Below, piece after piece: positions 37,568 to 57,065 of a stretch of DNA of 64,000 bases. The notes beneath the pieces were generated by a model, which had not been told where the DNA came from, did not search any database, and worked only from the letters and a program-made list of their open reading frames with translations. Numbering within the stretch: the stretch's first letter is position 1; each line of letters opens with the position of its first letter. The translations under genes were made by a program, and so were the position numbers. The DNA comes from a virus, in the IMG/VR virus record IMGVR_UViG_3300050821_016647, positions 1 to 64,000 of that record. One strand, given 5' to 3'.

Positions 37568-38116
37568 TCACTTTACGTGCACAACGAAGTGCTCAATCAG
37601 ATACGTCAGTCCTGTAACGACAGGAATGAGAATTCCCATATAGAAGAGATACTTATTTCTCGTTCTCTCTTCACGCTTCTCTTGAAGCTCTTCTCGCTGC
37701 TGAAGAGCAACCAACGCCTCTTTGGCGCCGCGCTCCTCGGCTTCCTTCTCTTTGATTTTCTCCTGAATGCGCGAGAGTTCCGCATGATCCATGACCCAGT
37801 GCGACCCGGTCGGTGATTGCGAAACGCGGACTTCGAGCTTCTCCGTCAGGGGCGGAGGTGGGACCGATCGAGTCTTGAGCGGAGGCGCCCCAACCGCACG
37901 AGCTACGTCTTCTAGACGCGCCTCGACTCGACCCGCGATCCCGTGCGCCGCCAGCGCAATGCCCTTGGTCTCGTCGATAGCGGCCTCGAGCTCAGGAATC
38001 TTCTTTTCGAGGTTGTCATTCACCTTGAACGCTAACGTGGCATATCCGCGTGCTAAGTCGATCGGTGCCATGGGGATGGCGGCCTCGTCATTTGCAGGTC
38101 GGGATGAGCTCGGCAT
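37568..38116 (-). CDS. coiled-coil protein with C-terminal TM
   Basis: TGATG-coupled start MPSSSRP; charged helix then YLFYMGILIPVVTGLTYLI. Confidence 0.65.
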   Translation of the reverse strand: MPSSSRPANDEAAIPMAPIDLARGYATLAFKVNDNLEKKIPELEAAIDETKGIALAAHGIAGRVEARLEDVARAVGAPPLKTRSVPPPPLTEKLEVRVSQSPTGSHWVMDHAELSRIQEKIKEKEAEERGAKEALVALQQREELQEKREERTRNKYLFYMGILIPVVTGLTYLIEHFVVHVK

Positions 38117-39771
38117 CACGAACCCGCTACGGTACGCGCATGAGCTAGGTAGACGATGCCACCAATTCCAACTGCAACGACGGCAAGCCCAGCTACCAAA
38201 AGACCTGTGTTGGTGGAAGCCGGCGCTGCGGGAGCCACGAACGGAGCGACCGCTGGCGTCGATGTCGTCGTTGCACCGGTCCACGACGGCGTAAGCCCCT
38301 CCGGAATCGTCCCAGGCTGCGTCTGCGACGCAGGGGGAAGCGTCGTATCGCCCGTCCAGCCAGGTGTAGACGGTCCGGACGTTGGGGGTGCGTACGTAAT
38401 GTCGCCGATCGTCACCGATCCATCCGGGTTCGTCGTCGAGGCTGGCGGAAACGGAGCTTGACCGAGCCCTGCCATCGCACGCGCCGTGTCGCGTAGATCT
38501 TGAGCGTTCGCCGGGCCGAGCGGACCGACGCCCTTCAAGAGGTGAATCTGCGTGCTGCCGTTGTTGGGCTCCTGGTATACGCACCCGGGATCATCAAGCG
38601 CCGTCGAAGGATCCCACAAAAACTGATTGCAGGTACACGTGCCCCACTCCCACTCGCAGTAGGGGTGGTGCTCGTTGTCCGTCGGCTCCATCGAGGTCTG
38701 GCCGCAGCACCCGCCGAGACCGGTCGGTCCGATCGCCGTCGAAGGCTTTCCACACCCCGCGCACTGACCGACGCCCGTAGGTTCGCCAGAGAGCCCAACC
38801 GACAGCGTGTGCGCCGGCACTTCGGGATCGACTTCACCTGGATACCGATCCCAGATGTAATTCTGACCGAGCCCCGTCACGCCGTCGTCGCAACGATCGA
38901 CCTGGACGTTCCATCCGTCGCGCGCGGGGTAGAACTGGAAAATCCCTGAGACATCGCCGAAGCGATAGAAAACGACCTCACCCTGCTTCATCTTGGCGGC
39001 TTGGAGCTCTTTCCTCTTCGCCAAGACCTGCGCCGAATCACCCGTGTACGGCGACCACGAGCATGCGTCGACCTGCACCTCGGTCACGCCGTAAAAGTAC
39101 GGGTACCAGTAGCCGTCCCACCATCCACCGCCCCAACCCCAGCCTCCCCAGCCGTGGCCGTGGCCGTGACCGGGCGGAAATGGGTGATGCCCTCCTCCAC
39201 CGTGACCAGGATGTCCACCCCCTCCACCTCCGCCGCCTCCACCACCTCCTCCGCCCGGCGTCAGGTGAGGCGTCAGAAGACCGCCCGCGGGAGGAGCTGC
39301 GTGCTGAGGGGCATGCGCCGGTCGATTGCCGGCATGTCCTCCCCCGTGACCTCCACCGTGACCGCCTCCACCATGTCCGCCTCCGCCGCCTCGACCGAGA
39401 GCGCCGACGCCGGGATGGTGTTCTTCGTGCCTCTCAGCGTGCCTCGGAGTCTGCTGCCCTTGCTGCTGAGCCGTATGAAGCTTCGCAGAAGCTGCATTGT
39501 AGATCCCGACCAATCCGCCACCCGGACCACCTGCCGCATGTCCGCTGTGCCCTTTGTGAGAAGCAACATGGCCGCGACCCACACCCGTGGGCCACGACGC
39601 TGGTACGTGAAGCTGTTCTCCGACCGAGAAGTCAGAGAAGGTCTTCCCAAGCCCGGTCGGCAGCGTTGTCTTGTGCGGGTTCGCCGCCACGAGCTCCGGA
39701 AACCGTTGCCAGTTTCCGGTGAGCCTGTGCGCGATTCGTGCCGGCGTATCGCCTTGTCGGACGGTGTACAT
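38116..39771 (-). CDS. LysM-domain virion membrane protein, Gly/His- and Cys-rich
   Basis: MYTVRQGDTPARIAHRLTG...LVAANP; poly-Gly/His linker; 8 G[LV]G motifs; C-terminal TM. Confidence 0.8.
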   Translation of the reverse strand: MYTVRQGDTPARIAHRLTGNWQRFPELVAANPHKTTLPTGLGKTFSDFSVGEQLHVPASWPTGVGRGHVASHKGHSGHAAGGPGGGLVGIYNAASAKLHTAQQQGQQTPRHAERHEEHHPGVGALGRGGGGGHGGGGHGGGHGGGHAGNRPAHAPQHAAPPAGGLLTPHLTPGGGGGGGGGGGGGGHPGHGGGGHHPFPPGHGHGHGWGGWGWGGGWWDGYWYPYFYGVTEVQVDACSWSPYTGDSAQVLAKRKELQAAKMKQGEVVFYRFGDVSGIFQFYPARDGWNVQVDRCDDGVTGLGQNYIWDRYPGEVDPEVPAHTLSVGLSGEPTGVGQCAGCGKPSTAIGPTGLGGCCGQTSMEPTDNEHHPYCEWEWGTCTCNQFLWDPSTALDDPGCVYQEPNNGSTQIHLLKGVGPLGPANAQDLRDTARAMAGLGQAPFPPASTTNPDGSVTIGDITYAPPTSGPSTPGWTGDTTLPPASQTQPGTIPEGLTPSWTGATTTSTPAVAPFVAPAAPASTNTGLLVAGLAVVAVGIGGIVYLAHARTVAGS

Positions 39772-39803
39772 GGGCTTCCCTCAAACGTGACTTGCTGTGT
39801 GAC

Positions 39804-40241
39804 TTACCTGCGGCGCGCGTACGCGCGGTGAGAAGAACGTCGACCAAAGGACGACCTGGACTTTCCACCACCCTGAACTGTCTTGCGGTGAGCGAGGTAA
39901 GCAACCGCCGCGATTCCGCCGACAACCGCGATGGCGCCGAGGATGAGCGGCGTGTTGCCGGTCGTGAGCGACGAAAGGACCGAAGAAGCGGTACCCGTCG
40001 TCGAGGCAGCAGAGCCGACAGCTGTCCCACCGCCGCCGCCGCCGCTGCCCAAGATCGTTCCCGTGTATGTCGGGTCTGATCCGTCGGGACCAAGAAGCTG
40101 AGACGTTTCCGTCCCACCCTCGGCTCCGCCCGAAATGAGGCTGTTGCCTCCACTGTCCGTTCCGTCCGAGCCCGCTGCGGGCCCGAGCTGGCCTAGACCG
40201 CGCAGCAGTGAAGTGTGAAACGCCGGCTCATCCATGATCAT
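39804..40241 (-). CDS. Gly/Ser-rich membrane protein
   Basis: EPAFHTSLLRGLGQ; TM PLILGAIAVVGGIAAVAYL; basic tail. Confidence 0.7.
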   Translation of the reverse strand: MIMDEPAFHTSLLRGLGQLGPAAGSDGTDSGGNSLISGGAEGGTETSQLLGPDGSDPTYTGTILGSGGGGGGTAVGSAASTTGTASSVLSSLTTGNTPLILGAIAVVGGIAAVAYLAHRKTVQGGGKSRSSFGRRSSHRAYARRR

Positions 40242-40252
40242 CTTCCTCTCGT

Positions 40253-40972
40253 TCACCTGTTGGAAATTACGTATGCCAGTCCGAACCCGGCTGCGATGCT
40301 GATGACTCCCACGGCAAGCGGCACGCCCCATCCCGCGAGCGCATCGCCGATCGTCGAAGCGGTCGTGGTTGGCGTCGCCGTTTGACCAACTCCTCGAACC
40401 GCGACACGTCCAAACCCCACTGGAAAGCTCGTGCTCCCAGGAATGGACGGTGGAGCCGAGGGCGACGAGCACGGCGGCATCTGCACTGCGCACTTCGCTC
40501 CTTCGCAACCCTCGCATGGACCGCCTGCGGCGCAGCTGCCACAGCACGGCTTGCCCGTCGCCGACGTTCCGGGCGCCGCTCCTACACCTTCGCCCACGTG
40601 CTGCATCGCCGGTACGCCGCGACGACCCATGATCGTGAGAATGGGCTCGACGCCGTGGCCGCTGTCGTCCCCACCGCCGTCCGCTCCCGCTCGAGGACGC
40701 ACCGCATAGGCCGGCGCCGGCTGAGGATAGGCGTGACCTGCCACGCCCAACTGACGTGACGGAGCTCGAGACTCCCATGCTGGCGGCACTGTGAGGCGCT
40801 CGCCGACGTGGAGTTCTCGAAACGTAGGAATCTGACCGAGTCCGACGCGCGCGGTGACAGAGGACTTGTGTGCGTTCGCACGCACGAGCTCGCTCATTCG
40901 TGCAGGATTGCCCGTCAGTTTCTGAGCAATCACCATCGGCGTGTCGCCAGGTTGGACGATGTAGAAACTCAT
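40253..40972 (-). CDS. LysM-domain membrane protein
   Basis: MSFYIVQPGDTPMVIAQKLTG...LVRANAHK; CCGSCAAGGPCEGC; C-terminal TM. Confidence 0.8.
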   Translation of the reverse strand: MSFYIVQPGDTPMVIAQKLTGNPARMSELVRANAHKSSVTARVGLGQIPTFRELHVGERLTVPPAWESRAPSRQLGVAGHAYPQPAPAYAVRPRAGADGGGDDSGHGVEPILTIMGRRGVPAMQHVGEGVGAAPGTSATGKPCCGSCAAGGPCEGCEGAKCAVQMPPCSSPSAPPSIPGSTSFPVGFGRVAVRGVGQTATPTTTASTIGDALAGWGVPLAVGVISIAAGFGLAYVISNR

Positions 40973-42165
40973 CCGGGACCTCCGTTGCCTTGCCGCCATC
41001 GCGCAAGCCGGCGAAGAATGGCGTCCGTCGTAGGATTCTGCGGCGCTCTTCCGAGACCGGTCATGTTCGGGCGATGCACTACCGTCTTCGGCTCTCCACG
41101 GCCCGTACGCCACTGTTTAGCGATTCGTTGAATGATGCCGTCCGCCTTCGTGACTACGGCTGCGGGCAGTCCTGCCAGACGCGACGACGTGTTCGACGCA
41201 TTCGGATGAGGAGGCGACGCCGGACGCTTCGGCTGCGGCTCGCCGGACTGACCACCTTCGGGCAAACACGCGTCGTACGCGCTCGTATCCTCGGCGCTGC
41301 GTCGCATCGTGTTGTCGCCGACCTCGGTCGTGTCGCGCGTAAGTCGGTCACCATCGCCGGGACGTCGGTACGTCTTCGGTGATCCGGTCGGCGCCTGCTC
41401 TTCCATCTCGAAGATGAGTGATCCTGCGATGCGGCCGTAGATCGACAGGGGGTAGTTCTGGACGAACGCGTCCTCGGGCGTCGTGCCTTGCGTCGTCAAA
41501 AACTGAAGTGCTCCACCACCCGTCGTGGGCGGTGGCGCGGAGCGGGTACTCGGGTCCGTCTGCTGCACGCTCGCCATGAAAACGATGTTGCAGGGGCCCT
41601 CGAACGCCACGTCGCAGACAGAAGGCTCACTCCAACGGTCGCAACGCAAGTCGAAGAAGCGACCGAGCTCAGGAGTAAGAACGTTACCCGGAAACGATCC
41701 GCCGTACGGAGGCGTGACGACATTTCCGACGATGGTCTCGAAGATCTGAGCCGGTGTCTGACTCACCTCGAACGCCATTCCCTCGGCGTTCTGCGCGTTG
41801 GCCAGAATCTTGGCACCCGGCGGAAGCTTGCGGATGCCCCAGAGAACGTTACCGTCGACATAACTCCACGTCGGCGTCACCACCGGCCTCTCGAGCGGGT
41901 AGGTGTACGCGCCACCACCCGTACCGAGTGGAATCTGGTCGAGAAGCGTCAGGTACTGGCGAAATCCCACCACTCGCCCGCGTTGCCCGGCGTTGAAATA
42001 CTTCGCGCACAGCACAAAGAGCTGCCGCTGCGTCGGAACCTGCGGACCGCCGTTCGTCCCGATGAAGAGGCCGAGGTCATACGGACCACCGAGTGGGTCC
42101 GAGCCAACAAGCTGCCGGTTCGGATTCAGCCCGACCGTCACGATTTCTAGGCGGCTGCGACGCAT
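40969..42165 (-). CDS. candidate jelly-roll minor capsid/vertex protein
   Basis: Beta-strand-rich first ~270 aa, basic low-complexity tail with MTGLGR; directly downstream of the capsid candidates; fold inferred only. Confidence 0.5.
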   Translation of the reverse strand: MRRSRLEIVTVGLNPNRQLVGSDPLGGPYDLGLFIGTNGGPQVPTQRQLFVLCAKYFNAGQRGRVVGFRQYLTLLDQIPLGTGGGAYTYPLERPVVTPTWSYVDGNVLWGIRKLPPGAKILANAQNAEGMAFEVSQTPAQIFETIVGNVVTPPYGGSFPGNVLTPELGRFFDLRCDRWSEPSVCDVAFEGPCNIVFMASVQQTDPSTRSAPPPTTGGGALQFLTTQGTTPEDAFVQNYPLSIYGRIAGSLIFEMEEQAPTGSPKTYRRPGDGDRLTRDTTEVGDNTMRRSAEDTSAYDACLPEGGQSGEPQPKRPASPPHPNASNTSSRLAGLPAAVVTKADGIIQRIAKQWRTGRGEPKTVVHRPNMTGLGRAPQNPTTDAILRRLARWRQGNGGPG

Positions 42166-42189
42166 TACGCTGCCTCCCGTGCTATAAAT

Positions 42190-42220
42190 GCTGCCTGCGG
42201 CGCGTCAACGCCCAGGCAGC
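42190..42220. other. GC-rich hairpin at the edge of the GIY-YIG insertion
   Basis: GCTGCCTG-C-GGCG-cgtcaa-CGCC-CAGGCAGC. Confidence 0.5.
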
Positions 42221-42299
42221 GTGGCTCACCTCGACCTTTGCAGGGAGGCGAACGATGAAGATTGTGAATGGTTTCCGTGCGCGTGTCGAGGTCGGTTGA

Positions 42300-43295
42300 A
42301 TGAAAACCGACCCGGAGAGCCGTTGGTTCACCATCTACGTTCACACGTGCGACGCGGACCCGCGAAGCAGCGGCGATCGTCTTGGTAAAGGAAAGCAGTA
42401 CGTCGGGCAGGTGGTTCATTTGCTCGGTGACGCTTCGGACACGCCGGAACTGGCAATGAAAAGGCGATGGCGAGCAAAACGTTATGAACGATCGCTGATC
42501 GGTCATACTGTCCGTCAGTTCGGAACAAAGAATTTTCGTCACGAGATTCTTGATACTGTACTCGGACAGACCGCGGCCAACCTCGCTGAAGCCGAGTGGG
42601 CTGAAAAACTCGATACCTACGAACCACACGGGTACAACAGAAGAAAATGTGGAACGCAGGGTGCACTGACTTTTGAGGAACGCAGTGCGTTTGGCCGCAT
42701 CGCGCGTCGTAAAGGAATGGAAACGCTTGGTCCAGAAGGACGAAGCGCAGCCATGTACAAGGCTAAGGAAACGTTGGGACCCGAAGGACGAAAGGCAATT
42801 AGTCGTAAAGCAATGGAGACACTCGGTCCCGAAGGACGGAGCGCGGCTGCTCAAAAAGCGAAGGAAACGCTGGGACCCGAAGGACGAAAATCGGCCACTC
42901 GCAAGGCGAATGAAACGAAGGGTCCTGAAGGTCGAAGTGCTGCCGTCCGCAAGGCGCTGAAAACAATGGGTCCTAAAGGTCGGCACGCACGTGCACTCAA
43001 ATCGAATATGACATCGGGACCAGATGGTCGAAGCGCCCGTGTGCGCAGAGCCAATGCGACGAGAGGGCCTGAAGGACGAAGAGCCTCTGCTCTCAAAGGA
43101 ATCGAGACTCAAGGTCCCGAAGGACTGAAACAACGCCTCTACAAGGCTTGGGACGTGCGTTGGTTCAAAGCGCTTCGACTCGCTCTTGCACAAAAAGACT
43201 TTGTGAGAGCTATCGGCGTTCTCAAGGCGTGCCTCTACGCCACAATGCGGAGGCTGGCCGAAGATCCTCTCTTTGGCGAACAGATAGTCGAATAG
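42300..43295 (+). CDS. GIY-YIG homing endonuclease with nine 16-aa repeats
   Basis: TIYVHT...QYVGQ...KRRW...HEIL...AEAEW...GYN; repeats ETLGPEGRSAAxxKAx; antisense to the capsid operon, lower GC. Confidence 0.85.
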   Translation: MKTDPESRWFTIYVHTCDADPRSSGDRLGKGKQYVGQVVHLLGDASDTPELAMKRRWRAKRYERSLIGHTVRQFGTKNFRHEILDTVLGQTAANLAEAEWAEKLDTYEPHGYNRRKCGTQGALTFEERSAFGRIARRKGMETLGPEGRSAAMYKAKETLGPEGRKAISRKAMETLGPEGRSAAAQKAKETLGPEGRKSATRKANETKGPEGRSAAVRKALKTMGPKGRHARALKSNMTSGPDGRSARVRRANATRGPEGRRASALKGIETQGPEGLKQRLYKAWDVRWFKALRLALAQKDFVRAIGVLKACLYATMRRLAEDPLFGEQIVE

Positions 43296-43365
43296 CGGGC
43301 CTGATGTCGCCGCGTATTGACTACTGACTATTTTTCGATCTCTCCACCTGCGCACGGGTGCCTCC

Positions 43366-43971
43366 TCACGGGCACTCCACCGCCGGGGGGACCCAAAATC
43401 CGAGCTCGCGAAGTTTGCAGGCCGCAACGTCCACGCTGATTTCGTCTACTGTGTGGTCCAAAAATTGCCAGCCGTTGAACGTAAGTACACAGTTGTACGG
43501 GGGCGCATTGGGCTCGCTCGCCGGGAACACTTGCGTGAGCATGAACTCGATCTCGATGTTCTGTTGCTTGTAGAGCGGCCACCCGCTCACCCAGCGCGAC
43601 GAGATGAGGTTCACGAAGTTGTTGAGCGGCGTGAAGTTCGGCGAGACGAGGTAGCGCGGCCCCGAGTGCACCGTGCAGCGCACCGAGATGCCTGGCGCCA
43701 TTCGGAGGTTCGCGTCGTACAGCGTCTTGAAGATGTTGCCCGCGAAGACGTTCGGCTGCTGAAGATCGTACTGGAGATTGTCTATCCAAGTTCTTTGGGC
43801 AATGGTTGTATCAAGACCAGCTTCGATGGGTTGCTGCCCCAGAGCCGCAGAGGAGAATGAACCCGATGCGTTGATCGAGATTGGAATCCGAGGAATCCCG
43901 AGGACGATCCCATACGCCGCGATCGGGTCCATGACCGCTAGGTCTTGAATGTACTGCGGCTTCGGTTCCAT
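43366..43971 (-). CDS. candidate small single-jelly-roll capsid protein
   Basis: 201 aa, alternating hydrophobic beta pattern (WIDNLQYD, ISVRCTV, WPLYKQQNIEIEFML, CVLTFNGWQF); adjacent to the large candidate. Confidence 0.5.
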   Translation of the reverse strand: MEPKPQYIQDLAVMDPIAAYGIVLGIPRIPISINASGSFSSAALGQQPIEAGLDTTIAQRTWIDNLQYDLQQPNVFAGNIFKTLYDANLRMAPGISVRCTVHSGPRYLVSPNFTPLNNFVNLISSRWVSGWPLYKQQNIEIEFMLTQVFPASEPNAPPYNCVLTFNGWQFLDHTVDEISVDVAACKLRELGFWVPPAVECP

Positions 43972-44011
43972 GCTCGTCCTCCTTTCCTTCTCTCGTTGAA
44001 GCTAAGCGCGT

Positions 44012-44070
44012 GAAAAACAAGATGCCCCGAAGCCACCCGACTCTCCCTCCTAGGAAAGAGAGCCGGGCAG
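44012..44070 (-). terminator. possible intrinsic terminator/attenuator after the major capsid candidate
   Basis: CCCGACTCTC/GAGAGCCGGG stem (44036-44067), followed on the minus strand by TCTTGTTTTT. Confidence 0.4.
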
Positions 44071-44086
44071 CTCCAGAGCTCTACGA

Positions 44087-45328
44087 TCAGCCGCCCGCTG
44101 ACTGCGCGGTCCCGACCACGCCCGCCGGGACGAGGTGGTTCAGGATGTACTGCTTCCAGGGTCCCCAGATCTCGAAGCCCTTGATGAGAATGGCGAGCTG
44201 GAGCGCGCCACCCTTCATGAGCACGCGATCCGTCTCGACGGCCTTCTCGACCACGATCGTGGTCGGCTCTGCCGTGTCCGCGAACGACAGCTCTGCGATC
44301 GTAACCGCCGTGAGGCCGTCCGTCGCCGGGCCGATCGGCATCACGGTGTGCGTGGTGCCGAAGCCATGGTCGTTGTTGGACAGGTATTGCTTCATGAGGT
44401 TCTGGTGGTACTCGTCCTGCGCCTTGAGCACCATCCCGATCGGGATGCCGCGCTCGAGCAGAACCGGCTTGAACAGCTTCCGGAACGGCTGGAGCATGCC
44501 CGTCATCCCCTGCGTGCGGAGGCCGCCGTAGGTGACGTCGAGCAGATCGTACGCGCGGGTCGGGTGGTACACGCCCGTGCTCGTCGCGCCGCCGGTCGTG
44601 ACCGACCCGATGCGCTGCGAGTTGATCGGGAGGAACGTGCCCGTATCACCGATGGGCGCGCCCTGGTACTTCGCGTTCACGCGGTCGACGTACCGCTGGA
44701 ACGCCTGCTGCGAAGAGCCCGCCGCGACGGCCTCGGCGTACGAGCCGAAGTAGCTCACGTCCGCCGCCAGCTCGTTGATCAGCAGGTAACGCTGCTGCAT
44801 GATCCACTGGAACTGGTAGGCGTTCATGAGGTGCCAGAGCGCGTTCTGCGCGCAGACGCCCCACTCGAGCGTGGCCGGGGTCATCGTCTGACCGCCCGAG
44901 AGTCCGAGGCCGGTCAGGTCATCGGTCGCGAACGAGTCGGGCGAGTTCGGGATCGCCCCGGATGCCGGCTGGAAGTTGATGTAGTTGCCGATCTGCGAGC
45001 CCTGCTGGGGCTCGGCAAACCCGTGCACGCCGAAGCCGATGACCAGCATGTCGACTTGGAGGATGCCGTTGATGACGAACGAGCTGTCGACGTCCTGGAC
45101 CCCCGGTACGGCCTTGGGGTTTTGGAGCACGTCGATCTCGTCACCGAACGTCCCGTCGATGAAGCCGTCGGCGACGGGCAGATCGATCGTCCACGTCACG
45201 TACTCGATGACGGGCACCTGCGTAAAACCGCAAGTGAGAACGCTGTTGACGACGTTGTCGGAGGGAGCCGCACCGAGTCCCACCATGCGGCTGGGATTCT
45301 CGAGCTTGTGCATGCTTGAGCTTTTCAT
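44087..45328 (-). CDS. candidate major capsid protein (jelly-roll-like)
   Basis: 413 aa, very strong GC3 bias, beta-rich (KPVLLERGIPIGMVLKAQ, LQLAILIKGFEI), N-terminal ENP + MVGLGAAP, followed by a hairpin; no HK97 features recognised. Confidence 0.55.
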   Translation of the reverse strand: MKSSSMHKLENPSRMVGLGAAPSDNVVNSVLTCGFTQVPVIEYVTWTIDLPVADGFIDGTFGDEIDVLQNPKAVPGVQDVDSSFVINGILQVDMLVIGFGVHGFAEPQQGSQIGNYINFQPASGAIPNSPDSFATDDLTGLGLSGGQTMTPATLEWGVCAQNALWHLMNAYQFQWIMQQRYLLINELAADVSYFGSYAEAVAAGSSQQAFQRYVDRVNAKYQGAPIGDTGTFLPINSQRIGSVTTGGATSTGVYHPTRAYDLLDVTYGGLRTQGMTGMLQPFRKLFKPVLLERGIPIGMVLKAQDEYHQNLMKQYLSNNDHGFGTTHTVMPIGPATDGLTAVTIAELSFADTAEPTTIVVEKAVETDRVLMKGGALQLAILIKGFEIWGPWKQYILNHLVPAGVVGTAQSAGG

Positions 45329-45441
45329 CTGTTTCTCCTGCGCCTGCGGGAGACCCGCATTCGCATGATGGTTTCAAGGCGTTGGACGAACTACGAACTA
45401 TCGAGGCACGCACTCACTAAACGAGCTGAGCGCGTTGAACT

Positions 45442-47139: not shown

Positions 47140-47543
47140 TGGCAGTGTCTCCCTAGTGGAAAAACCCGGCGCTTTGGCCGACTTCGAAACGGTAACGAAG
47201 TAGCCTGTAGACGTCAAACGTCTCACATGATTGGCAGTCGTCGAACGCGGTTTACGACCACGTGAATAGCGACGGATCACCGAGAATTTGGCTCTCGAAT
47301 GCTTGCGACGTCGCGGCGCACTATTCGACTTGTCGGAGCGAGTTTTCGTGGCTACTCGCTTTGTAATACGCTTGTGTGCAGCGCTCGTAGACCGATTTCG
47401 CGATACACGCTTAGGTTTTGTATTACGAGCGCCGGCTTCGTCGCTTTCACTCCTGAATGCGTTCATTCGAGCCGCATAATCCCCGCCGGATGACTTCGCC
47501 ATCCACAACGAATACGCCCACGCGGGCGGAACGACAACTCGCT

Positions 47544-48379: not shown

Positions 48380-48392
48380 TCGCCGACCGCGA

Positions 48393-48692: not shown

Positions 48693-48722
48693 GGGAATCT
48701 CCTGTTGAGGTGACCGACGTTA

Positions 48723-49646
48723 TCAGATCCTTCTTGGACCTGGAACTTTGCCGACTCCACGCACCATCTGCTGCGAAAACGCGTAGTCCTTTGCCTCTTT
48801 CACCGGAGTGCCGTCTGGAAAACACGGCAATCCTCTCTCGAGCCCGACAGGCACGTAAGACGCGCTGTCAGCTTGAGGCGCGAAGGCGTGAGCCATCGGA
48901 AAGACGCCAACGCCTGTTGGTTGAGCTGCTGGCTCTGTCTGCACAGGCACTGCGCCCACTCCAATGAAGTCGCCGTGGTCCGGTTCTTTTCCCATGGTCG
49001 TCGGAGCTCCGTTAGGTGTGGAAGACATTGTCCCGCTGATGGGGTCGACCCACCATTCCTTGGTCGCCGGATAGGACTCGTCCACGCCGTATTTCTCTGA
49101 CGACGGATCGACCTTCATCCAATTACCGTTGTCGCCGAGCACGGCGCAAATGACGTGGGTTGCCTGAGAGGTCCCGTACGCCTGACCTACGATCCGTGTC
49201 TCGATGCCAATCGAGAGCATTGCCGATGCGAACGCGATGCAGCGGTCATCACAATCGGCGGCAGGCATGCAGAGCCCATGTTCGTCCAGACAAAGCGTAC
49301 GAGCAGGAGTCGCCATGAGCTCGGTGTTGACCGGGTCCTGGACGTAAACGGTCCTTTTTCGAATCTCGTTGAGGATGGCTTGCGCCTGTCCTTTGACGGT
49401 CTTCGGCTTGCCCGCGGCAATGAGAACTTTCCCGGCGAACGCGCGGAGCCGCGGGTCATTACGGCCGTCGCGAATGTACTTCGACATCTCGTTGAGCGAG
49501 TAATTCGTCCCTTCAACCCCCGGTGGATGTCGGTCCTGAATCACCGGCGTTCCAAGCGCTTTCGCCGCCTCGGTCGCAGACGGAGCGAAGCCTTTGCCGA
49601 AACCAGCAATCGGGCGGGGAAATGCGGGAACGTCGGAATCGCTCAT
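48723..49646 (-). CDS. transglutaminase-like (papain-fold) cysteine enzyme
   Basis: VYVQDP...P.RTL...ADCDDR (Cys), ATHVI (His), WMKVDPS (Asp). Confidence 0.82.
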   Translation of the reverse strand: MSDSDVPAFPRPIAGFGKGFAPSATEAAKALGTPVIQDRHPPGVEGTNYSLNEMSKYIRDGRNDPRLRAFAGKVLIAAGKPKTVKGQAQAILNEIRKRTVYVQDPVNTELMATPARTLCLDEHGLCMPAADCDDRCIAFASAMLSIGIETRIVGQAYGTSQATHVICAVLGDNGNWMKVDPSSEKYGVDESYPATKEWWVDPISGTMSSTPNGAPTTMGKEPDHGDFIGVGAVPVQTEPAAQPTGVGVFPMAHAFAPQADSASYVPVGLERGLPCFPDGTPVKEAKDYAFSQQMVRGVGKVPGPRRI

Positions 49647-49648
49647 GG

Positions 49649-50224
49649 TCACCCCGCCAGTAAAACGTTCGGTGCGACCCAGTAATTGTTGAAGACCTGC
49701 GTCCACCCGGCCCCTGGCGATCCGACCTGGTACACGGCCTTGAGGTGGTGCGGCATCGCCGTCACACCGGTAGGACACCAGATCCAATACTCACCGACCT
49801 GATGCCACTGACCTTGACCGGCTTGCGGCGCCTTCGACGGCATCGCCCCGTGCGTGTACCAGAAGCCGCGCGGATCGAACTTGGGAGGAATCTGCGCGCC
49901 AGCGGCGACGAGCGTCGGCGCAGCTTGAATGTTGGTCTTGTGGCCTTCAACGATCGAAAGAGACGTGTGCTCCGGAGGAGGCGACATCGCAACATCAGGG
50001 CGCATCAGTGCTCCAACACCTTCCGGCTCTTTCGCGGCTCCTTCCGACTCCTTCCCTACTCCCTCCGGTTCCTTCCCTACACCCTCCGGCTCCTTCACCG
50101 TACTCTTCGTCGGTGCCGAGGTATCCGGCCACTTCTTCCTCTCTCCCCCAGGAAGCAGACCCAGACCTCGAATGATCCCCTGAGGGAAGATGTAGTCCTT
50201 GTCGGGATTGCGATCGTCACTCAT
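49649..50224 (-). CDS. virion protein with KEPEGVG repeats and Trp-rich repeats
   Basis: MSDDRNPDKDYIFPQGIIRGLGL; (KEPEGVG)x~4; GQWHQVGEYWIWCP, GWTQVFNNYWVAP. Confidence 0.65.
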   Translation of the reverse strand: MSDDRNPDKDYIFPQGIIRGLGLLPGGERKKWPDTSAPTKSTVKEPEGVGKEPEGVGKESEGAAKEPEGVGALMRPDVAMSPPPEHTSLSIVEGHKTNIQAAPTLVAAGAQIPPKFDPRGFWYTHGAMPSKAPQAGQGQWHQVGEYWIWCPTGVTAMPHHLKAVYQVGSPGAGWTQVFNNYWVAPNVLLAG

Positions 50225-50745
50225 CGAGCTCTCCTTCGTGGCTTCGCGCGTCGTACGCGTCTGAACCTTCGTTGCGTTCCGTGACCGATCGAAAGCGGGT
50301 TTGACTTCATTCCCGCCGGAGCAACCGCGGGTCGCATCGCCGACCATGCGATGAACCCGAGGAGTCCGAGAAGCGCAGTTCCACCGAGCACCCACGCCCA
50401 CGTGGGCACGCTCGAGGTCGCGGGAGCTGCGGCTACGGGAACCGGCGCTGTGTACGTCGGAAGAGGAAGAGTGCCAGGAAACGACGTGGGCACGATCGCC
50501 GTCGAGCCGACAGGATTGAGTCCGTCCGTCGAAGCTGGAGGCGTCACACCGGGTATCGGGATCTCCACGCCCGATACGAGCGGCGTCGTATCCGCAGTCA
50601 CAGCCGGAGCCGGCGGCGGCTCGGGCGGTGGCGTAAGTGGCGGGAGAGTGGTCGGAGCGTACATGACCCCGGCAGATACCTGGCCTAGACCTGTAGGAAC
50701 AGAGGCGCCGTTTTGGGGCGTAGCAGGCGTAGCTGTTGCTTCCAT
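50221..50745 (-). CDS. Pro-rich protein with TM-NP-basic C-terminus
   Basis: PTGLGQ; VPTWAWVLGGTALLGLLGFIAW...MKSNPLS...RRFRRVRRAKPRRRAR. Confidence 0.75.
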   Translation of the reverse strand: MEATATPATPQNGASVPTGLGQVSAGVMYAPTTLPPLTPPPEPPPAPAVTADTTPLVSGVEIPIPGVTPPASTDGLNPVGSTAIVPTSFPGTLPLPTYTAPVPVAAAPATSSVPTWAWVLGGTALLGLLGFIAWSAMRPAVAPAGMKSNPLSIGHGTQRRFRRVRRAKPRRRAR

Positions 50746-50790
50746 GCGCCTACAGTATCAGGCACTCCCGAAGTCGTCGAGAATGGGCTT

Positions 50791-51573
50791 CTACGTCGAA
50801 GACGACGCAGGCGAAGAAGCCTCGGAAACGAGATAAATCACGCCACCGAGGACCGCAATTCCGAGCAGTCCAGCTATCACCATAGCCGTCGTAGACATTC
50901 CTGCCGGCGCTACGGATGGGGCGTAATACTGCGCCGGCTGAGGCTGTCCCGCTGCGGCCATCGTAGCGAGAATCGCCTGCGCCGACGCCGAGGAACGTGC
51001 CGTAGGCGTTGTCCCGGGAGCGGATGGGTACGTAGGGGAGTACGTCCCAGGAAGTCCCGATTGAAGCGTCGTGTTCACGACGAACGATGGCGCAGAAGAA
51101 GGAACGGGAATGACTGGCGATTCTCCTGGAGCCAACGGCTGAATTTTTCCGACTCCTGAGGGGAGACCCATGACGCCTCCGATAGCAGCACCTGATCCGA
51201 GCTTGCTCGTCTTGGACACGTAGTGCCCGCCGTGGCCCGTACTCTCGACGAAGAGTCCGTCAACGCAGATCAAGATCTCATTCTTACCCCCGGACGTGTA
51301 CTTACCAGTCTTAGCGTCGTATCCGGTGTAAACGAACTTGAAGAGGTATCCTCCATAAGTGAAATATGGAGAGACCCCGATCTGGGTCATGTAGTAGTTG
51401 AAGACCGGGCCGTAGTTGAGCGAGACGCCGTCGATGGTGACGTACGGACCGTGGCCTTGCGTTATCACTCGCAGCCAGCGCTTGCACTGGCGAGCGCCGG
51501 TCAGAACGATGCCTTCCGGCGGTGATGGATTTACGCCGAGACCTCGGACCAGCGCTGGGCTGAACGCGTGCAC
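50791..51573 (-). CDS. virion membrane protein
   Basis: GTG start MHAFSPALVRGLGVNP; C-terminal TM. Confidence 0.65.
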   Translation of the reverse strand: MHAFSPALVRGLGVNPSPPEGIVLTGARQCKRWLRVITQGHGPYVTIDGVSLNYGPVFNYYMTQIGVSPYFTYGGYLFKFVYTGYDAKTGKYTSGGKNEILICVDGLFVESTGHGGHYVSKTSKLGSGAAIGGVMGLPSGVGKIQPLAPGESPVIPVPSSAPSFVVNTTLQSGLPGTYSPTYPSAPGTTPTARSSASAQAILATMAAAGQPQPAQYYAPSVAPAGMSTTAMVIAGLLGIAVLGGVIYLVSEASSPASSST

Positions 51574-51581
51574 GATCTGCT

Positions 51582-52922
51582 CTAATCGAGCAAATAGTAC
51601 GCGCCCACACCCGCACCACCGACGAGCAAGAGCGCCCAGAGCCACGCGTACGACGTCGTCGCAGCGGCGTACGGGATGAAGACCCAGTACGCGGGCCCGG
51701 TGTTGATCCACTGTCCCGTGATGCCGGCGGCTGCGAGTTGCGCAGGGACCTGCGTCGGCCTCGGAAGGGTCGGGCCACCGATCCCCAGAAGTTGGTTCAC
51801 GTTGCTGACCACGTAGTACGTGTTGACGATGGCAAGCGAATACGCCGGCATCGGGTACCACTGCCAGAAGTGCGGGCGAACCATGCACCACGCGCCAGGC
51901 AAAGAAACCCCGGGCGGAGGTGCCGTCGGTCGCGCAACCCCCGTGCTGTTGTACACCCACGCGAACTGCCCCAGTCCGGCAGCGGTCTGGAATACGGGGA
52001 TTCCCGGTTGAGGCGCCGTAGGCGGAAGCACCATGGCCAAGAACTGCGCGCTGAGCACCGCCTGGTGAACGGAAGGAATCCCGCTCGCGGAGTAGACGAG
52101 CGCGACAGGAGTCAGAGCACCAGCAACCACAGGCGCAGTCTGCACAACCGTGACCGCACCAACGGTGCACTGCTGGATCGGACCGTTCGTCAGCGTAGGG
52201 TTGTAGCGGAAGTGCGACCCGCCGTACGTGAAGTAGATCCAGCCATCGGATGCCGTCGATACGCCGCCGACCGCCAGTCGCGAAGACAGCGCAGGAGCCA
52301 CCTGAAGAAAGAGCGCGCTCGTCGAGGACAGACCCTTCCAGCCCGAACCGGCTGGGCAAGCAAACGGATTCGTCAGCGTCACCTGCCCGAGACCGGTCGG
52401 CTTGCGACCGACACCGACGATATCCGCTGCCCCGTCCGCAAAAGCGCCGACACCGGTCGGCAGTCCGTTGATGCCTTGGAAGTGCGAAGGCGGGTTGTAG
52501 TGCGTTCCGTGCGGGAAAAGCTCCTCTCCGCCGGCCAGCAGCTCCGCTGCCTCCCCAGACGACCCTGCGGCTGGACCGAGTCTGCCGCCCCCCTCTCCGC
52601 CCACATTTGTCGCCGACCCAGAAGATGTACCTCCTGCACCCATGTTGCCGTGAGGACCCTCACTGCCTCGCGGCTCAGGGGTCAAGTTGTACCCTCCGCG
52701 ATTGACCTCGTGCCATCCGCTTGGCTGCCCTACGCCCGCCGGCATTCCGGCGACGCCGTGAAAGTGCTCGGGGACCTTGTACACGGCACCTTTCGCGTCA
52801 GGCCGGACCAGTGTTAGGCCAAGTCCGGTAATCGGCATCGCGAACGCTCGGTCTCGAGCAGGACTCGCAGGATTCCGTCCGAGTCCAAGGTGACGAACGT
52901 CGAAGGCGCAATCCTGGGTCAT
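51582..52922 (-). CDS. virion membrane protein with multiple G[LV]G motifs
   Basis: QDCAFDVRHLGLGRNP, DRAFAMPITGLG; Trp-rich repeats; C-terminal TM paralogous to 52997-53551. Confidence 0.7.
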   Translation of the reverse strand: MTQDCAFDVRHLGLGRNPASPARDRAFAMPITGLGLTLVRPDAKGAVYKVPEHFHGVAGMPAGVGQPSGWHEVNRGGYNLTPEPRGSEGPHGNMGAGGTSSGSATNVGGEGGGRLGPAAGSSGEAAELLAGGEELFPHGTHYNPPSHFQGINGLPTGVGAFADGAADIVGVGRKPTGLGQVTLTNPFACPAGSGWKGLSSTSALFLQVAPALSSRLAVGGVSTASDGWIYFTYGGSHFRYNPTLTNGPIQQCTVGAVTVVQTAPVVAGALTPVALVYSASGIPSVHQAVLSAQFLAMVLPPTAPQPGIPVFQTAAGLGQFAWVYNSTGVARPTAPPPGVSLPGAWCMVRPHFWQWYPMPAYSLAIVNTYYVVSNVNQLLGIGGPTLPRPTQVPAQLAAAGITGQWINTGPAYWVFIPYAAATTSYAWLWALLLVGGAGVGAYYLLD

Positions 52923-52996
52923 GGTCGATCTCTCCTACCTTGTCGTCTGTCTCGACAGGGTAAACTAGCCGAGCGGGTACCGCAACTCTGCGTTTT

Positions 52997-53551
52997 TCAG
53001 TCGATCAGATAGTAGCCAGCGGCCCCAGCCGCTCCGAGCCCGAGTAGCACCCAAAGCCAGGTATACGACGTTGGCGCAGCAGTGACGGGCATCGCGCCTT
53101 GAGAGGTGAGCGTCACAAGCGCCGGATTGAACGTCATGGGCGCCCCGGCGACCACGATGGGCGCCGAGCCTCCGCTCTGATGAGCCGCGACAGAGCTCTT
53201 GCTCGCGCAGACGCTCACGCTACCGAAGCCGGGCGAGAACATGATCGGCAAGCCTGACGACAACTTGAAGTAGAAGTTGCCGTCTGCGGCAGCTCGCGAC
53301 GGATACAAGGAAGCCCAGTTTCTTATCCACTTGACGAGAGCGCCGGTGAGCTCGGGCACCTTCGGCGACGATGGGCTCGGAGGGTACGCGTTCACCCAAG
53401 AATAGCCCGCCGGACAGGAAATAGGCTTCGCCGACCAGTTCGGAGGCGTGAGTCCCAGCCCCCTCGGTCGAAGACGCGCTGAAAACGCGCGGTCGCTCGG
53501 GGCCGGCACGCGACCGAAACCTTGAATCGGAAAAGCGTAGTCCTTGGACAT
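52997..53551 (-). CDS. virion membrane protein, paralog of the C-half of 51582-52922
   Basis: MSKDYAFPIQGFGR; CPAG..W, A.DG..YF; SYTWLWVLLGLGAAGAAGYYLID. Confidence 0.7.
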   Translation of the reverse strand: MSKDYAFPIQGFGRVPAPSDRAFSARLRPRGLGLTPPNWSAKPISCPAGYSWVNAYPPSPSSPKVPELTGALVKWIRNWASLYPSRAAADGNFYFKLSSGLPIMFSPGFGSVSVCASKSSVAAHQSGGSAPIVVAGAPMTFNPALVTLTSQGAMPVTAAPTSYTWLWVLLGLGAAGAAGYYLID

Positions 53552-53553
53552 GG

Positions 53554-53838
53554 TCACTCCGTAGCAAAGTAGATGAGGGCCCCGATCACTGCAACTCCGA
53601 CGGCTCCGGCAATCACGTAAGGAACCAACGACGGTGCTGCCGCAGCCGACGCCGTTCCCGGCGCGGTCACTGCAAGACCCTGATCCAGACTCGCTTGCGC
53701 CGCGACGACTCTCGCTTGAGCCGCTTGAATAGCGGTCGTGTTTCCGCTCGCAGCAGCTTGTGCCAGCGCCGTCTGCGAATTTTGCCACTCGGTAAATTGC
53801 GCCGTCAGCTGCGCTTGAGTCTGTCCGAGGCCGCTCAT
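53554..53838 (-). CDS. small helical membrane protein
   Basis: MSGLGQTQ...; C-terminal TM. Confidence 0.7.
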   Translation of the reverse strand: MSGLGQTQAQLTAQFTEWQNSQTALAQAAASGNTTAIQAAQARVVAAQASLDQGLAVTAPGTASAAAAPSLVPYVIAGAVGVAVIGALIYFATE

Positions 53839-55310
53839 CTTCGAAGCAACCTTCCAGCTCGAGCAAGACCAAGCTTCGTCGTTTCGACGGGGGACGTATT
53901 CGTCGCCGCCGAGTACGCCAGAATGGCAAAAGCCAAGGTGCCTGCGGCGCCTGCTGCTACCGCGCCGACCTTGCTAGCCGTCGTGAGGGTCGGGGCAGCA
54001 GCAACCGTCACAGACTGTGTTGGTGCAGTCGTCCAGTCTTCGGGACCCGTCCACACGGCTCCATTCGCCATGGCGCGAGCCATAGCGGAATAGTCCGCAA
54101 TCAGCTGATGGAGCGTGGCCTGAGCTTGCGTGGTCGACCAGCCAACACCTTGAAGAGTATGACCAGGATACCCGAGCTCGAATTTCTGCCCCCCATTCGG
54201 CTGACTCGAACCGAACGTTGTTCCGTTCTTGTTGAGGATGTACGCCTGAATCGACAGCTCGGCGACGATGGCCATAGGCGAAGCGCCGCAGCTCAACATG
54301 CCAAGCACGGTCGCGACGGCATTCATTCCGTCAGGGTTGAAGTAAATAGTCTGCCCACTCGTAGGTCCGTTCCCCGGAGCGGCTGTGCCGTAGAGCGATG
54401 TTCCGAAGTAAAGAGGGTCCGGCCGTCGCTGCTGCGCTCGCTGAACGATGAGCGCCTGGGTCAGCGTGTCACTCACCCCTTGCGTGGACTGAATCCACTT
54501 GTTTTGTAGGGCCGTTGCGCTTCCACCGGGCCCACCCGATCCGAAATAAAGATCGAGCGTGCAGTCCACCAGTCCTCCCGGACCTGTGTTCGTCGGCGTC
54601 GACCAGTTCCACCATACCGGTGTACAGAGCGGCTGCTCTTTCCCTTTTTTCCCAGTCACCGTATTCAGGACGGAATTGAGTGACGCCGATCGCGTATTCT
54701 GGCTTAGAAACGTTGGGCCGTAGCTCGGCAGTATTTGGTAAAACGGATTGGTGGCCCAAGCTCCATAGAGCAGATTCCTCCACGTTGACTCGCGCTTCGA
54801 AGTCGAAGGTGGATAAACGGACGCACACCAATCGGCCATCGCCCACCCCTGTGGGTTGTCCGACATGAGTGCTCGTTTCGAATTTGCGTAAGCAATCACA
54901 CGCTCGGTGATGACCTCGGTAGCCTGACTCACGCCGCCGACGGCAGTAACGCCCTGAAATGTCCCGAGGCTCGCAAGCCCTTCAACTAGACCCGCCACAG
55001 CGCCGACCGCAGCACCGTACGGACCTGCGATAGCTGCCCCTTGCATAGCACCGCTGAGAACGTCGGCCGCCATCGTCGCGACCTGCTGGTACTGCGCACC
55101 GCCGATACTCGTGATGAAAGAGATGCCAGCCTCGGCGAGCGTCATGAGCCCGTCGGAGGTTCCGCTTTGAATCGCGTTGACGAGATTCTGACCGTGCGTA
55201 ATTGCGTCCGACGCACTCGACGGGATATTTGCGAGCTGCGTCGCTGGATCGTTGAGGTGGGAGACTAGCGCCGAAGCGGACGAGAATTGGCCTAGCCCTC
55301 GAGCGCGCAT
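53835..55310 (-). CDS. glycine-zipper membrane protein (possible DNA delivery/penetration protein)
   Basis: MRARGLGQ; GAAIAGPYGAAVGAVAGLVEGL; C-terminal TM. Confidence 0.6.
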   Translation of the reverse strand: MRARGLGQFSSASALVSHLNDPATQLANIPSSASDAITHGQNLVNAIQSGTSDGLMTLAEAGISFITSIGGAQYQQVATMAADVLSGAMQGAAIAGPYGAAVGAVAGLVEGLASLGTFQGVTAVGGVSQATEVITERVIAYANSKRALMSDNPQGWAMADWCASVYPPSTSKRESTWRNLLYGAWATNPFYQILPSYGPTFLSQNTRSASLNSVLNTVTGKKGKEQPLCTPVWWNWSTPTNTGPGGLVDCTLDLYFGSGGPGGSATALQNKWIQSTQGVSDTLTQALIVQRAQQRRPDPLYFGTSLYGTAAPGNGPTSGQTIYFNPDGMNAVATVLGMLSCGASPMAIVAELSIQAYILNKNGTTFGSSQPNGGQKFELGYPGHTLQGVGWSTTQAQATLHQLIADYSAMARAMANGAVWTGPEDWTTAPTQSVTVAAAPTLTTASKVGAVAAGAAGTLAFAILAYSAATNTSPVETTKLGLARAGRLLRR

Positions 55311-55358
55311 GCGCCCAGCCTACATCGGTCCACTCTGGAGCGCTACGAAACGCTACGT

Positions 55359-57065
55359 TCAGCCCCAGAGCGGGCCGGACGGGACCGGGATTGTCGGCTT
55401 TTTCGGAGCCGGCGGCGGAACAGGAGCGGGTCTCGGAGGCGGCGCTGCTTGCACCGGCGCTGCTTGCGGAGGAGGAGGCTGCGGAGCTTGCGGAGGCTGC
55501 GGCTGCGGAGGAAGCACCGGAACCTGAGGGTTCTGCGCGCGCGACACCGCGTTGGCAAGTTCGATTCTCTGCTTCACCGCGTTGTTGGTCAGTGCCGCCT
55601 GATGGTCGACGATCTTTCGGTACTGGTCGACGCCCTTGGTCACGAACTCGGAAATTTTCGGAAGTGCCCCCACGAGCGTCGGCGCCCATGCGACCTTTCC
55701 CGTCGCGCGATCGAGCGCCATGGAGATACCACCCACGTCCTGAGTTAGCATTGCCGGTGGCACCTGCGGCACATCCTGAGGCCCATCGTCGATCTCATCA
55801 TCGACTGTCGCTGGCTGCGGAGCGAAGCCTGCGAACATGTCCTGCACAGTCTTCATCCCGGACATGGCCTCTTGAAGCATCGAAACCGTGCCCTTGATCT
55901 GCGCTCCGAACGACGGTTGCGGAGCCGGCGGCGGAGCCTGAACGATGACCTGCGCGGGCTGCGCAGGCGCGGCCGGCGCCGCAACGGCAACAGGCACTTG
56001 CCCCACTCCGACAGGACCGACAGGATACGCAGCCATCGGCGGTGCCGGCATCATGCCTCCAGGCACACGCACGTAACCGGGTGGGACGGGATACTGCTCA
56101 GACGGAAGAGAGATGAAACCCGCCGGAGGCTGTGGCTTCTTCATCTCGGCGACCATTTCCTTGAGCGTCGCCATCGTTGCGGCGTTCTGCGCCTGCATCA
56201 TCTCGAACAGCGCACGATTCGCGTCGAACCCGCCGGAGGCGGGTGCGGGCGGGGGCGGCATGTAAATGGGCTGCGGAGCCGGTACGGGTGCAGGAGATTG
56301 CGGCGGAGCTGCCTGCTGCTGCTGCGGCTGCTGCGGAGGAGACACCACGATGACCTGCGGTGACTGCTGCTGCGGTTGAGGCTGTTGTGGCCACGGGTAC
56401 CCAGGAGAAGCGGGCCAACCCTGACCTCCTCCGCTACCTCCACCGGCACCTCCTCCAGGATACGCGTACTGAGGTTGCTGCGGTTGCTGTTGCTGTTGCT
56501 GAGGTGCCGGAGGATTGATCACTTGCACGGGAGACGGCGCGGTTTTATCCGGCATGAACAACTTTGCCGTACCGCGTTCCGCACCTGAGCTCGATCGGAA
56601 CGAGATCTTGTATGTCGCCGGACCGCTCATGCCATGTTGACTGGCAACGTAGTTGTACAGATCGATCGAGTTCCTGACGTTCGCACCGAGCACCGGTTGA
56701 AATTGCGCTCTCGGTCCAGGGTCCTCTCGAGAGACCAGAATGATCATCGATCCCCATTCCTGAGAGAACGGGATGATGAGATTGTCGATGAGCTCGAGAG
56801 CTTCCTCGGCATTCCAAGAAACGCTTTTGCCGAGTGCTTTGTCCCGGAGCTTGGCTGCGTTACGCTTGTTCTTTCGCGCGGAGTCCACAGTCAAAGCTCC
56901 TATCGCACGAGCTTGTTCCTCGGAAACTTCCCCTTCCATGGTGGGGGTCCCGTCCGGGTTCGTGGGAACCGCGGCCGGCAGCGTAACCCGGGTCACGTCG
57001 CTCATGTCGACGTCGGCGTCTTCGGGGGTCACTTCGGAACGTCGAGCTACTCGGTGACGAGCCAT
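55359..57065 (-). CDS. large Pro/Gln-rich protein (possible scaffold)
   Basis: Globular N-terminal ~170 aa, long PQQQ/PAP tracts, two helical islands. Confidence 0.7.
   Translation of the reverse strand: MARHRVARRSEVTPEDADVDMSDVTRVTLPAAVPTNPDGTPTMEGEVSEEQARAIGALTVDSARKNKRNAAKLRDKALGKSVSWNAEEALELIDNLIIPFSQEWGSMIILVSREDPGPRAQFQPVLGANVRNSIDLYNYVASQHGMSGPATYKISFRSSSGAERGTAKLFMPDKTAPSPVQVINPPAPQQQQQQPQQPQYAYPGGGAGGGSGGGQGWPASPGYPWPQQPQPQQQSPQVIVVSPPQQPQQQQAAPPQSPAPVPAPQPIYMPPPPAPASGGFDANRALFEMMQAQNAATMATLKEMVAEMKKPQPPAGFISLPSEQYPVPPGYVRVPGGMMPAPPMAAYPVGPVGVGQVPVAVAAPAAPAQPAQVIVQAPPPAPQPSFGAQIKGTVSMLQEAMSGMKTVQDMFAGFAPQPATVDDEIDDGPQDVPQVPPAMLTQDVGGISMALDRATGKVAWAPTLVGALPKISEFVTKGVDQYRKIVDHQAALTNNAVKQRIELANAVSRAQNPQVPVLPPQPQPPQAPQPPPPQAAPVQAAPPPRPAPVPPPAPKKPTIPVPSGPLWG

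Follow-up and report, generated by a model that had tools for sequence, protein, structure and literature searches.

The window analysed here is the first 64 kb of the 127,529-bp IMG/VR record IMGVR_UViG_3300050821_016647, a viral genome with direct terminal repeats and 61.6% G+C that is rated complete. Positions 38116-57065 of the window hold a block of genes, every one on the minus strand, whose products share a short motif, G-[L/V/F]-G (hereafter the tag), and include an enzyme with a transglutaminase fold and a candidate major capsid protein. Trimming the implausible N-terminal extensions of the mechanically listed long open reading frames (ORFs) to leader-giving starts yielded 18 genes. 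A Pfam search with the ten largest of them returned a single match, Transglut_core in the ORF 48723-49787, to which PHROGs added only the match of the 38116-39771 product to a LysM-like endolysin fragment; most proteins of the block had no match in Pfam, PHROGs or NCBIfam, and a profile search of solved structures gave chance matches only. About 30 of about 190 ORFs were scanned, and none was recognised as a terminase, portal or packaging ATPase.

The number of tags expected from composition was calculated for each protein, and the other 172 ORFs of the genome served as the comparison set. The 18 block proteins contain 47 tags against 13.5 expected (Poisson P ~9e-13), whereas the other ORFs contain 44 against 43.1 expected. 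Sixteen of the 18 proteins are tagged. The first-pass annotation of this sequence had counted about 40 motifs in about 15 adjacent proteins; all the motif strings that it quoted are present in the ORFs to which it assigned them, the single difference being a leader given as MHAF..., which reads VHAF from its GTG start. The motifs GAG, GSG, GTG, GPG, GIG and GMG are not enriched in the block, and the excess of GGG and GHG stems entirely from homopolymer runs of one protein. Because G-x-G with other middle residues (A, S, T, P, I or M) is not in excess, glycine-rich low complexity is ruled out as the cause of the tag excess. A DNA-level motif is ruled out as well: the 47 tags are encoded by 40 different 9-mers and the plus-strand frames show no enrichment, so that selection acts at the protein level.

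The residues around the 47 tags follow a common pattern. Upstream, Leu stands at position -3, Pro (17) or Leu, Val, Ile or Met (21) at -2, and Thr (12) or Arg (8) at -1, with Leu, Ile, Val or Met two to three residues ahead of the first Gly in about half of the tags; downstream, the second Gly is followed by Gln (12), Ala (8), Lys (6) or Arg (6), and Pro (15) is found two residues further on. The overall context is L-P-T/R-G-L/V-G-Q/K/R-x-P, often preceded in leaders by D/E-aromatic-A-F. The context form P[TRAEK]G[LVF]G or G[LVF]G[QKR].P occurs 24 times in the block against 0.5 in shuffles (maximum 4) and twice in the remaining 29,587 residues, while the extended leader [AIV]F-x3-8-G[LVF]G occurs 11 times against 0.4 in the block and three times elsewhere in the genome. 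As the first-pass annotation had described, the tags lie mostly outside transmembrane parts: 41 of the 47 are outside hydrophobic segments, and six are inside them (five in membrane helices and one in a capsid strand). Sixteen tags fall within the first 40 residues of their proteins (6.2 expected, P = 2e-4), and eight of the 18 proteins are C-tail-anchored. These data show that G-[L/V/F]-G is a protein-level short linear tag on the N-terminal leaders and flexible linkers of proteins of a particle and membrane module. We rejected the sortase signal LPxTG as its identity, as the tag reads L-P-x-G-h-G, is mostly N-terminal or internal and is borne by proteins without secretion signals; twin-arginine and lipoprotein signals gave no match by eye.

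The enzyme (48723-49646, 307 aa) belongs to the transglutaminase-like superfamily (PF01841). It scores 31.2-31.6 bits against the Pfam model (cut-off 23), which 31 of 34 homologues also match, and the putative catalytic residues Cys132 (49251-49253), His164 (49155-49157) and Asp180 (49107-49109) are invariant across these 34 homologues, down to 39% identity. Around the catalytic Cys the sequence reads A-D-C-D-D. In the AlphaFold2 model the core (residues ~40-210) has a predicted local distance difference test (pLDDT) score above 90 and the ends are disordered. The closest folds (VIA Z scores) are the putative protease 3kd4 (14.2; root mean square deviation 3.4 A over 147 aligned residues), factor XIII and PNGase (11.8), LapG (10.4) and the pseudomurein isopeptidases PeiP (9.6) and PeiW (8.9), and Foldseek agrees on the transglutaminase-fold matches. 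The Peptidase_C93 model did not match the window enzyme, and one of the 34 homologues matched it at E 0.013. A profile search found 366 clusters (at 50% identity) of this family at E <=1e-30, which is its minimum size, and 861 at E <=1e-10.

The description of a Cys-His-Asp enzyme carrying the motif at both ends proved correct. The N-terminal tag AFPRPIAGFGK (residues 8-18; 49593-49625) lies immediately ahead of the point at which most family members start. Only 20 of 138 distant representatives have G-x-G in their first 25 residues, and most start MS-D/G-F-x-P-S; in the clade of the window enzyme, the N-terminus has gained ...G-F-G-K directly ahead of a conserved G-F-A-P-S, and the Lys after this tag is nearly always kept. 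A second copy, GDFIGVG (residues 225-231; 48954-48974), directly follows the catalytic core and is conserved in the family: in the 34-sequence enzyme alignment A2, G225, G229 and G231 are invariant and D226 nearly so, and GD[FY][IV]G[VI]G is found in 49 of the 138 representatives. The C-terminal extended tag KDYAFSQQMVRGVGK (residues 286-300; 48747-48791) stands in place of the membrane anchor in which 103 of the 138 representatives end and which is missing from the window enzyme. Neither an N-terminal hydrophobic signal nor a signal peptide was found in the latter. Some homologues (P0125 and P0155) contain an intein beside the catalytic Cys (...AADC↓FPEGT...HDVTVSN↓CDD), with Pfam Hint and Intein_splicing matches in two or three homologues; the long enzyme forms L005:5613-7625, L009:3727-6027 and L003:4949-7513 (670-854 aa) probably also hold one.

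The candidate major capsid protein (44087-45328, 413 aa) carries the tag near its N-terminus (RMVGLGAAP, 45263-45289). At least 405 metagenomic homologues were found, and the 120 that were examined, down to ~42% identity, all keep R-x-[I/F]-G-L-G-[Q/A]-x-P, with the first conserved strand about 22 residues further on and a segment of varying length ahead of the tag (tag start between residues 3 and 55). Gln follows the tag in 45 of these homologues, Ala in 38 and Lys in five. Since Arg at -3 is kept in 82 of the 120, the protein starts at the upstream ATG (45328) and not, as first annotated, at MVGLGA. The model of the candidate (pLDDT 81) is a beta-sandwich with weak matches only (Z <=4.0) to vertical jelly-roll coat proteins, including those of SPV1, HCIV-1, P23-77 and PRD1; Foldseek against PDB and BFVD returned only unreliable alignments to papillomavirus L1 (TM ~0.08). 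Among 50,697 GenBank phages, tblastn found nothing that matched either the enzyme or the capsid candidate. The first-pass annotation had spoken of virion proteins. The tie of the tagged proteins to a particle and membrane gene block holds, while their presence in virions is what we infer, the enzyme being the only one with a homologue annotated as structural (gp34 of the Salisaeta phage SSIP-1) and the fold match of the capsid candidate being weak.

Further tagged proteins of the block are all encoded on the minus strand. At lower coordinates than the enzyme gene are a LysM-like, Gly/His-rich, tail-anchored protein with eight tags (38116-39771); a small tail-anchored protein (39804-40241) whose leader MIMDEPAFHTSLLRGLGQ is kept in five orthologues at 39-69% identity; a conserved structural-module protein with one tag near its C-terminus (40969-42165, MTGLGR); and an Arg-rich protein with membrane helices (45442-47502), the C-terminal tail of which bears RGVGR, RGVGQ and KGFGM, kept in the relatives L007, L008 and L009. 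In this Arg-rich protein, about 300 residues of repeats (AAAPRRRRRR units) are followed by the membrane helices and then by the Pro-rich tail with three tags; it may be a membrane-tethered DNA-condensing protein. On the other side of the enzyme gene lie a repeat protein (49649-50224) with the leader KDYIFPQGIIRGLGL and three tandem KEPEGVGK repeats and a series of tail-anchored proteins: 50221-50745, with an N-terminal SVPTGLGQ; 50791-51573, with the leader VHAFSPALVRGLGV (GTG start) and an internal LPSGVGK; 51582-52922 (446 aa), with eight tags, two tandem extended leaders among them; 52997-53551, with two tandem extended leaders (MSKDYAFPIQGFGR and DRAFSARLRPRGLGL); and 53554-53838 (94 aa), which starts MSGLGQ. 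The block ends with a 491-aa membrane protein (53835-55310), which starts MRARGLGQ, a tag not kept in the orthologues aligned, and a Pro/Gln-rich 568-aa protein (55359-57065) with one tag (PVGVGQVP). Outside the block, the product of genome positions 120856-121986 (minus strand) is the only one to combine the extended form of the tag with the context form (residues 242-258, RPAFPDVQPAPEGLGL); this may be another particle protein, with a gene at a distance from the block.

The tag is enriched about 1.6-2.5-fold in five relatives: 17 against 10.8 expected in L007, 43 against 17.3 in L008 and 37 against 19.8 in L009 (65-81% capsid identity), and about two-fold in the more distant L004 and L005; it is not enriched in L006. 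The relatives L002 and L003 (~70% capsid identity) have the same leaders, for example MSDFAFPQAFVCGLGR, MKNDYAFPFVGLGQ and MQVFDQALMPVSRAHAGFGY. Orthologues at only 27-40% identity keep the positions of the tags, as in GVGRKPTGLGQ / GMGRKPTGMGD / GVGAVPVGVGL / GLGAAPTGVGQ, in which the residue after the tag changes (Q/D/L/Q); in the orthologues of 51582-52922, at 27-29% identity, both the N-terminal tag and the pair GxG-x-x-P-x-GxG are kept. The enzyme gene is syntenic with tagged genes in all relatives examined. The first-pass annotation had named a lack of enrichment over composition and a lack of conservation in relatives as grounds for abandoning the motif; neither ground holds, because the motif is enriched in the block and conserved in relatives. 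The genomes G001 and G002, which hold L002 and L003, are only 55 and 60 kb long, less than half of 127.5 kb; one has terminal repeats, their completeness is 92% and 100%, and both keep the tag and an enzyme homologue.

Several further features of the genome were noted. Two structural genes that are adjacent in relatives are separated here by a 1.2-kb insert (42166-43365) of lower G+C (57%), in which an opposite-strand ORF (42300-43295, plus strand) has a GIY-YIG-like start (FTIYVHT...GKQYVGQ) and about ten repeats of 16 residues (KAxETLGPEGRxAA; DNA period 48). The insert is likely a free-standing homing endonuclease, an Rfam search of the 42-43.5-kb region found nothing, and the 420-aa minus-strand ORF at 42165-43427 is probably spurious. 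The genome also contains two tyrosine integrase genes (window 13202-14164 and genome 110030-111094) and genes for RadC, a ComM-like Mg-chelatase ATPase, a Cdc48-like AAA ATPase and a D5-like primase-helicase. A subtilase (Peptidase_S8) is encoded at genome positions 104082-105422 (L012:82-1422, minus strand); its best NCBIfam match, far below the cut-off, is a type VII secretion mycosin. One homologue of the capsid candidate is binned in an Acidimicrobiales metagenome-assembled genome, and together with the mycosin-like subtilase this hints at an actinobacterial host.

We propose that the enzyme may be a sequence-specific cysteine protease that recognises the tag and would cut just after its second Gly (G-x-G↓X). 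The N-terminal leaders, which may first act as assembly or targeting signals, would be removed, and linkers, the enzyme's own ends included, would be severed too during particle assembly. Our estimate of the probability that the 48723-49646 product cleaves leaders or linkers at this site is roughly 0.45. Such a maturation protease had been suggested in the first-pass annotation, and what now speaks for it includes the fact that leader boundaries fall exactly at the tag and that the enzyme is inherited together with the tag. Also in its favour are the enrichment of the tag in the block and its bias towards N-termini, its retention in homologues whose flanking sequences have diverged, the invariant triad and the wide spread of the enzyme family, the occurrence of proteases such as LapG in this fold, the GDFxGVG behind the catalytic core, the structural annotation of gp34, and the 55-60-kb relatives that have the enzyme and the tag and lack a homologue of the genome's subtilase. 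Most enzyme homologues begin exactly where the window protein continues after G-F-G-K, and, once Met is removed, the leaderless members are as long as the product of a cut after G-x-G. The gene 43366-43971 gives the second case: its L009 orthologue has an extension ending ...KIRGFG and followed by MEPK, and the window protein starts MEPK. In these two families the boundary between presence and absence of a leader is the end of the tag, which would be expected of a removable leader, though the gain of a modular docking tag would look similar. A predicted tail-anchored topology is common to most enzyme relatives and the tagged proteins. A predicted complex of the enzyme core with residues 1-45 of the 52997-53551 product, a check proposed in the first-pass annotation, scored 0.33 against 0.00 for the best control and was rated weak support; the runs agreed in at least 39% of contacts, and the pLDDT of the partner was at least 45.

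Several points weigh against cleavage. The support for it is comparative throughout. In the calibration of the complex score, 58 of 80 solved complexes attained the mark, as did two of 110 mismatched pairs, yet at 0.60 or below it was attained by only seven of the 80 solved complexes and by both passing mismatches, so that a score of this weak kind is more often wrong than right. Cleavage would break up proteins with eight tags, or the tandem KEPEGVGK heptads, into numerous small fragments, and the multi-tag pattern suits multivalent binding or cross-linking at least as well. The replacement of the enzyme's membrane anchor by a copy of the tag can be read as a tether and not a cut site. The relative L006 (44% capsid identity) has the enzyme and no tag enrichment. 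Finally, the enzyme could be a tagged lysin borne by the particle, because its fold includes PeiW and PeiP, the cell-wall isopeptidases of archaeal proviruses.

These points bear on three other explanations. The tag could serve for docking only, as a short motif through which membrane-anchored and accessory proteins, including the enzyme, bind one shared partner (for example the capsid lattice or a scaffold), and would then stay uncut. Several or tandem copies in many proteins would provide avidity, all 120 homologues of the capsid candidate have retained the tag in a flexible arm at the N-terminus, the enzyme of this clade lost its anchor and gained a tag at the same place, and N-terminal modules can come or go as units. 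We nevertheless regard docking without cleavage as rather unlikely, as the ends of leaders coincide exactly with the starts of leaderless homologues in two families, and Gly-x-Gly with small flanks resembles the sites of cysteine proteases; docking would also be compatible with later cleavage, as in the capsid-targeting sequence of T4. Alternatively, the enzyme and the tag could be unrelated, the enzyme being a particle-borne cell-wall hydrolase for entry or exit and the tag being read by another viral or host factor. This is improbable given that the enzyme is syntenic with tagged genes in all relatives examined and itself bears the tag at both ends and after the core, even though pseudomurein endoisopeptidases share its fold (Z 8.9-9.6), proteins with LysM and PG_binding_1 domains sit in the same gene block here and in L006, and the SSIP-1 homologue is annotated as structural. 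The genome does encode another candidate protease, the subtilase at 104082-105422, but it has no homologue in the two tag-keeping relatives of 55-60 kb that are 92% and 100% complete, and for this reason it is disfavoured as the tag protease.

The remaining explanation, also raised in the first-pass annotation, is a cross-linking code, in which a true transglutaminase would join the Gln of G-L-G-Q to the Lys of G-V-G-K and so stitch membrane proteins to the shell. It would fit the transglutaminase fold (Z 11.8 to factor XIII), the rank of Gln (12 of 47) and Lys (6 of 47) as the first and third commonest residues after the tag, the likeness of the Lys-rich KEPEGVGK repeats to known transglutaminase substrates and the almost constant Lys behind the enzyme's own N-terminal tag. 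Yet more than half of the sites have Ala, Arg, Leu, Val or another residue there, the capsid homologues have Ala nearly as often as Gln and rarely Lys, and the residue shifts at orthologous sites, so that the conserved reactive Gln and Lys expected of transglutaminase cross-link sites were not found. The A-D-C-D-D around the catalytic Cys likewise differs from the animal motif G-Q-C-W-V-F. The case for cross-linking is thus weakened, and we consider it quite improbable.

If the tag is indeed a code for cutting or sorting, it would become possible to predict particle proteins in hundreds of genomes of uncultured viruses with no matches to known protein families, a function would be at hand for a widespread orphan enzyme family, and a short portable tag with its matching enzyme would become available for study. 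Both the cultured phage SSIP-1 and co-expression in E. coli would allow the idea to be tested directly.

Among known systems, SSIP-1 is the nearest: its gp34 is a remote homologue of the window enzyme, whose profile matches it with an hhalign probability of 94.5% (E 7.6e-8, 140 columns, Cys, His and Asp aligned), and G-L/M-G is found close to the N-terminus of several late, tail-anchored SSIP-1 proteins. This virus has no tail and contains an internal membrane (PMC6356626). It differs in its 43.8-kb circular genome, and gp34, annotated as a structural protein, is tail-anchored, whereas the window enzyme has a copy of the tag instead of an anchor. The hhalign profiles of 40969-42165, 43366-43971 and 44087-45328 did not match the structural proteins of SSIP-1, and in the literature we found no description of the tag or of a function for gp34. 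The fold (Z 10.4) and the Cys-His-Asp triad are shared with LapG, a protease that is specific for its target sequence, cleaves beside small residues and frees LapA of an N-terminal module (PMC3032545). LapG, however, is periplasmic and regulated and has a single substrate, unlike the window enzyme, which lacks a signal peptide and has C-tail-anchored relatives.

Lasso-peptide B proteins, which have the transglutaminase fold, and C39 double-glycine peptidases cut N-terminal leaders with a two-part motif ending in small residues, but their substrates are small secreted peptides and not particle proteins, and the family-model search found no match between these families and the enzyme set. In T4, a shared N-terminal capsid-targeting leader directs otherwise unrelated proteins to the particle and is afterwards removed by gp21, the prohead protease; that enzyme, however, is a serine protease with the site L/I-x-E, in a tailed phage without a membrane. 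In adenovirus, African swine fever virus (ASFV) and poxviruses, a viral cysteine protease that is itself packaged processes numerous precursors of particle proteins at consensus sites that contain Gly and are preceded by a hydrophobic residue: (M/I/L)XGX-G and (M/I/L)XGG-X for the adenovirus protease, GG-X for pS273R of ASFV and AG-X for I7 of poxviruses. These proteases have the Ulp1/adenain fold (clan CE), with His ahead of Cys, and act in eukaryotic hosts, whereas the window enzyme has a transglutaminase fold and the order Cys-His-Asp. Because fold and catalytic order differ, the parallel is a functional analogy and any likeness is convergent, which is all that is left of the eukaryotic-virus-like programme of the first-pass annotation. 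To our knowledge, proteolytic maturation at consensus sites is known in tailed phages and in these eukaryotic viruses and not in membrane-containing tailless bacterial viruses. At somewhat under even odds, a large uncultured lineage of membrane-containing bacterial viruses may mature its particles through a transglutaminase-fold protease that reads G-(L/V/F)-G↓X on capsid and membrane proteins; if so, it would be a convergent counterpart of the maturation proteases of adenovirus, ASFV and poxviruses.

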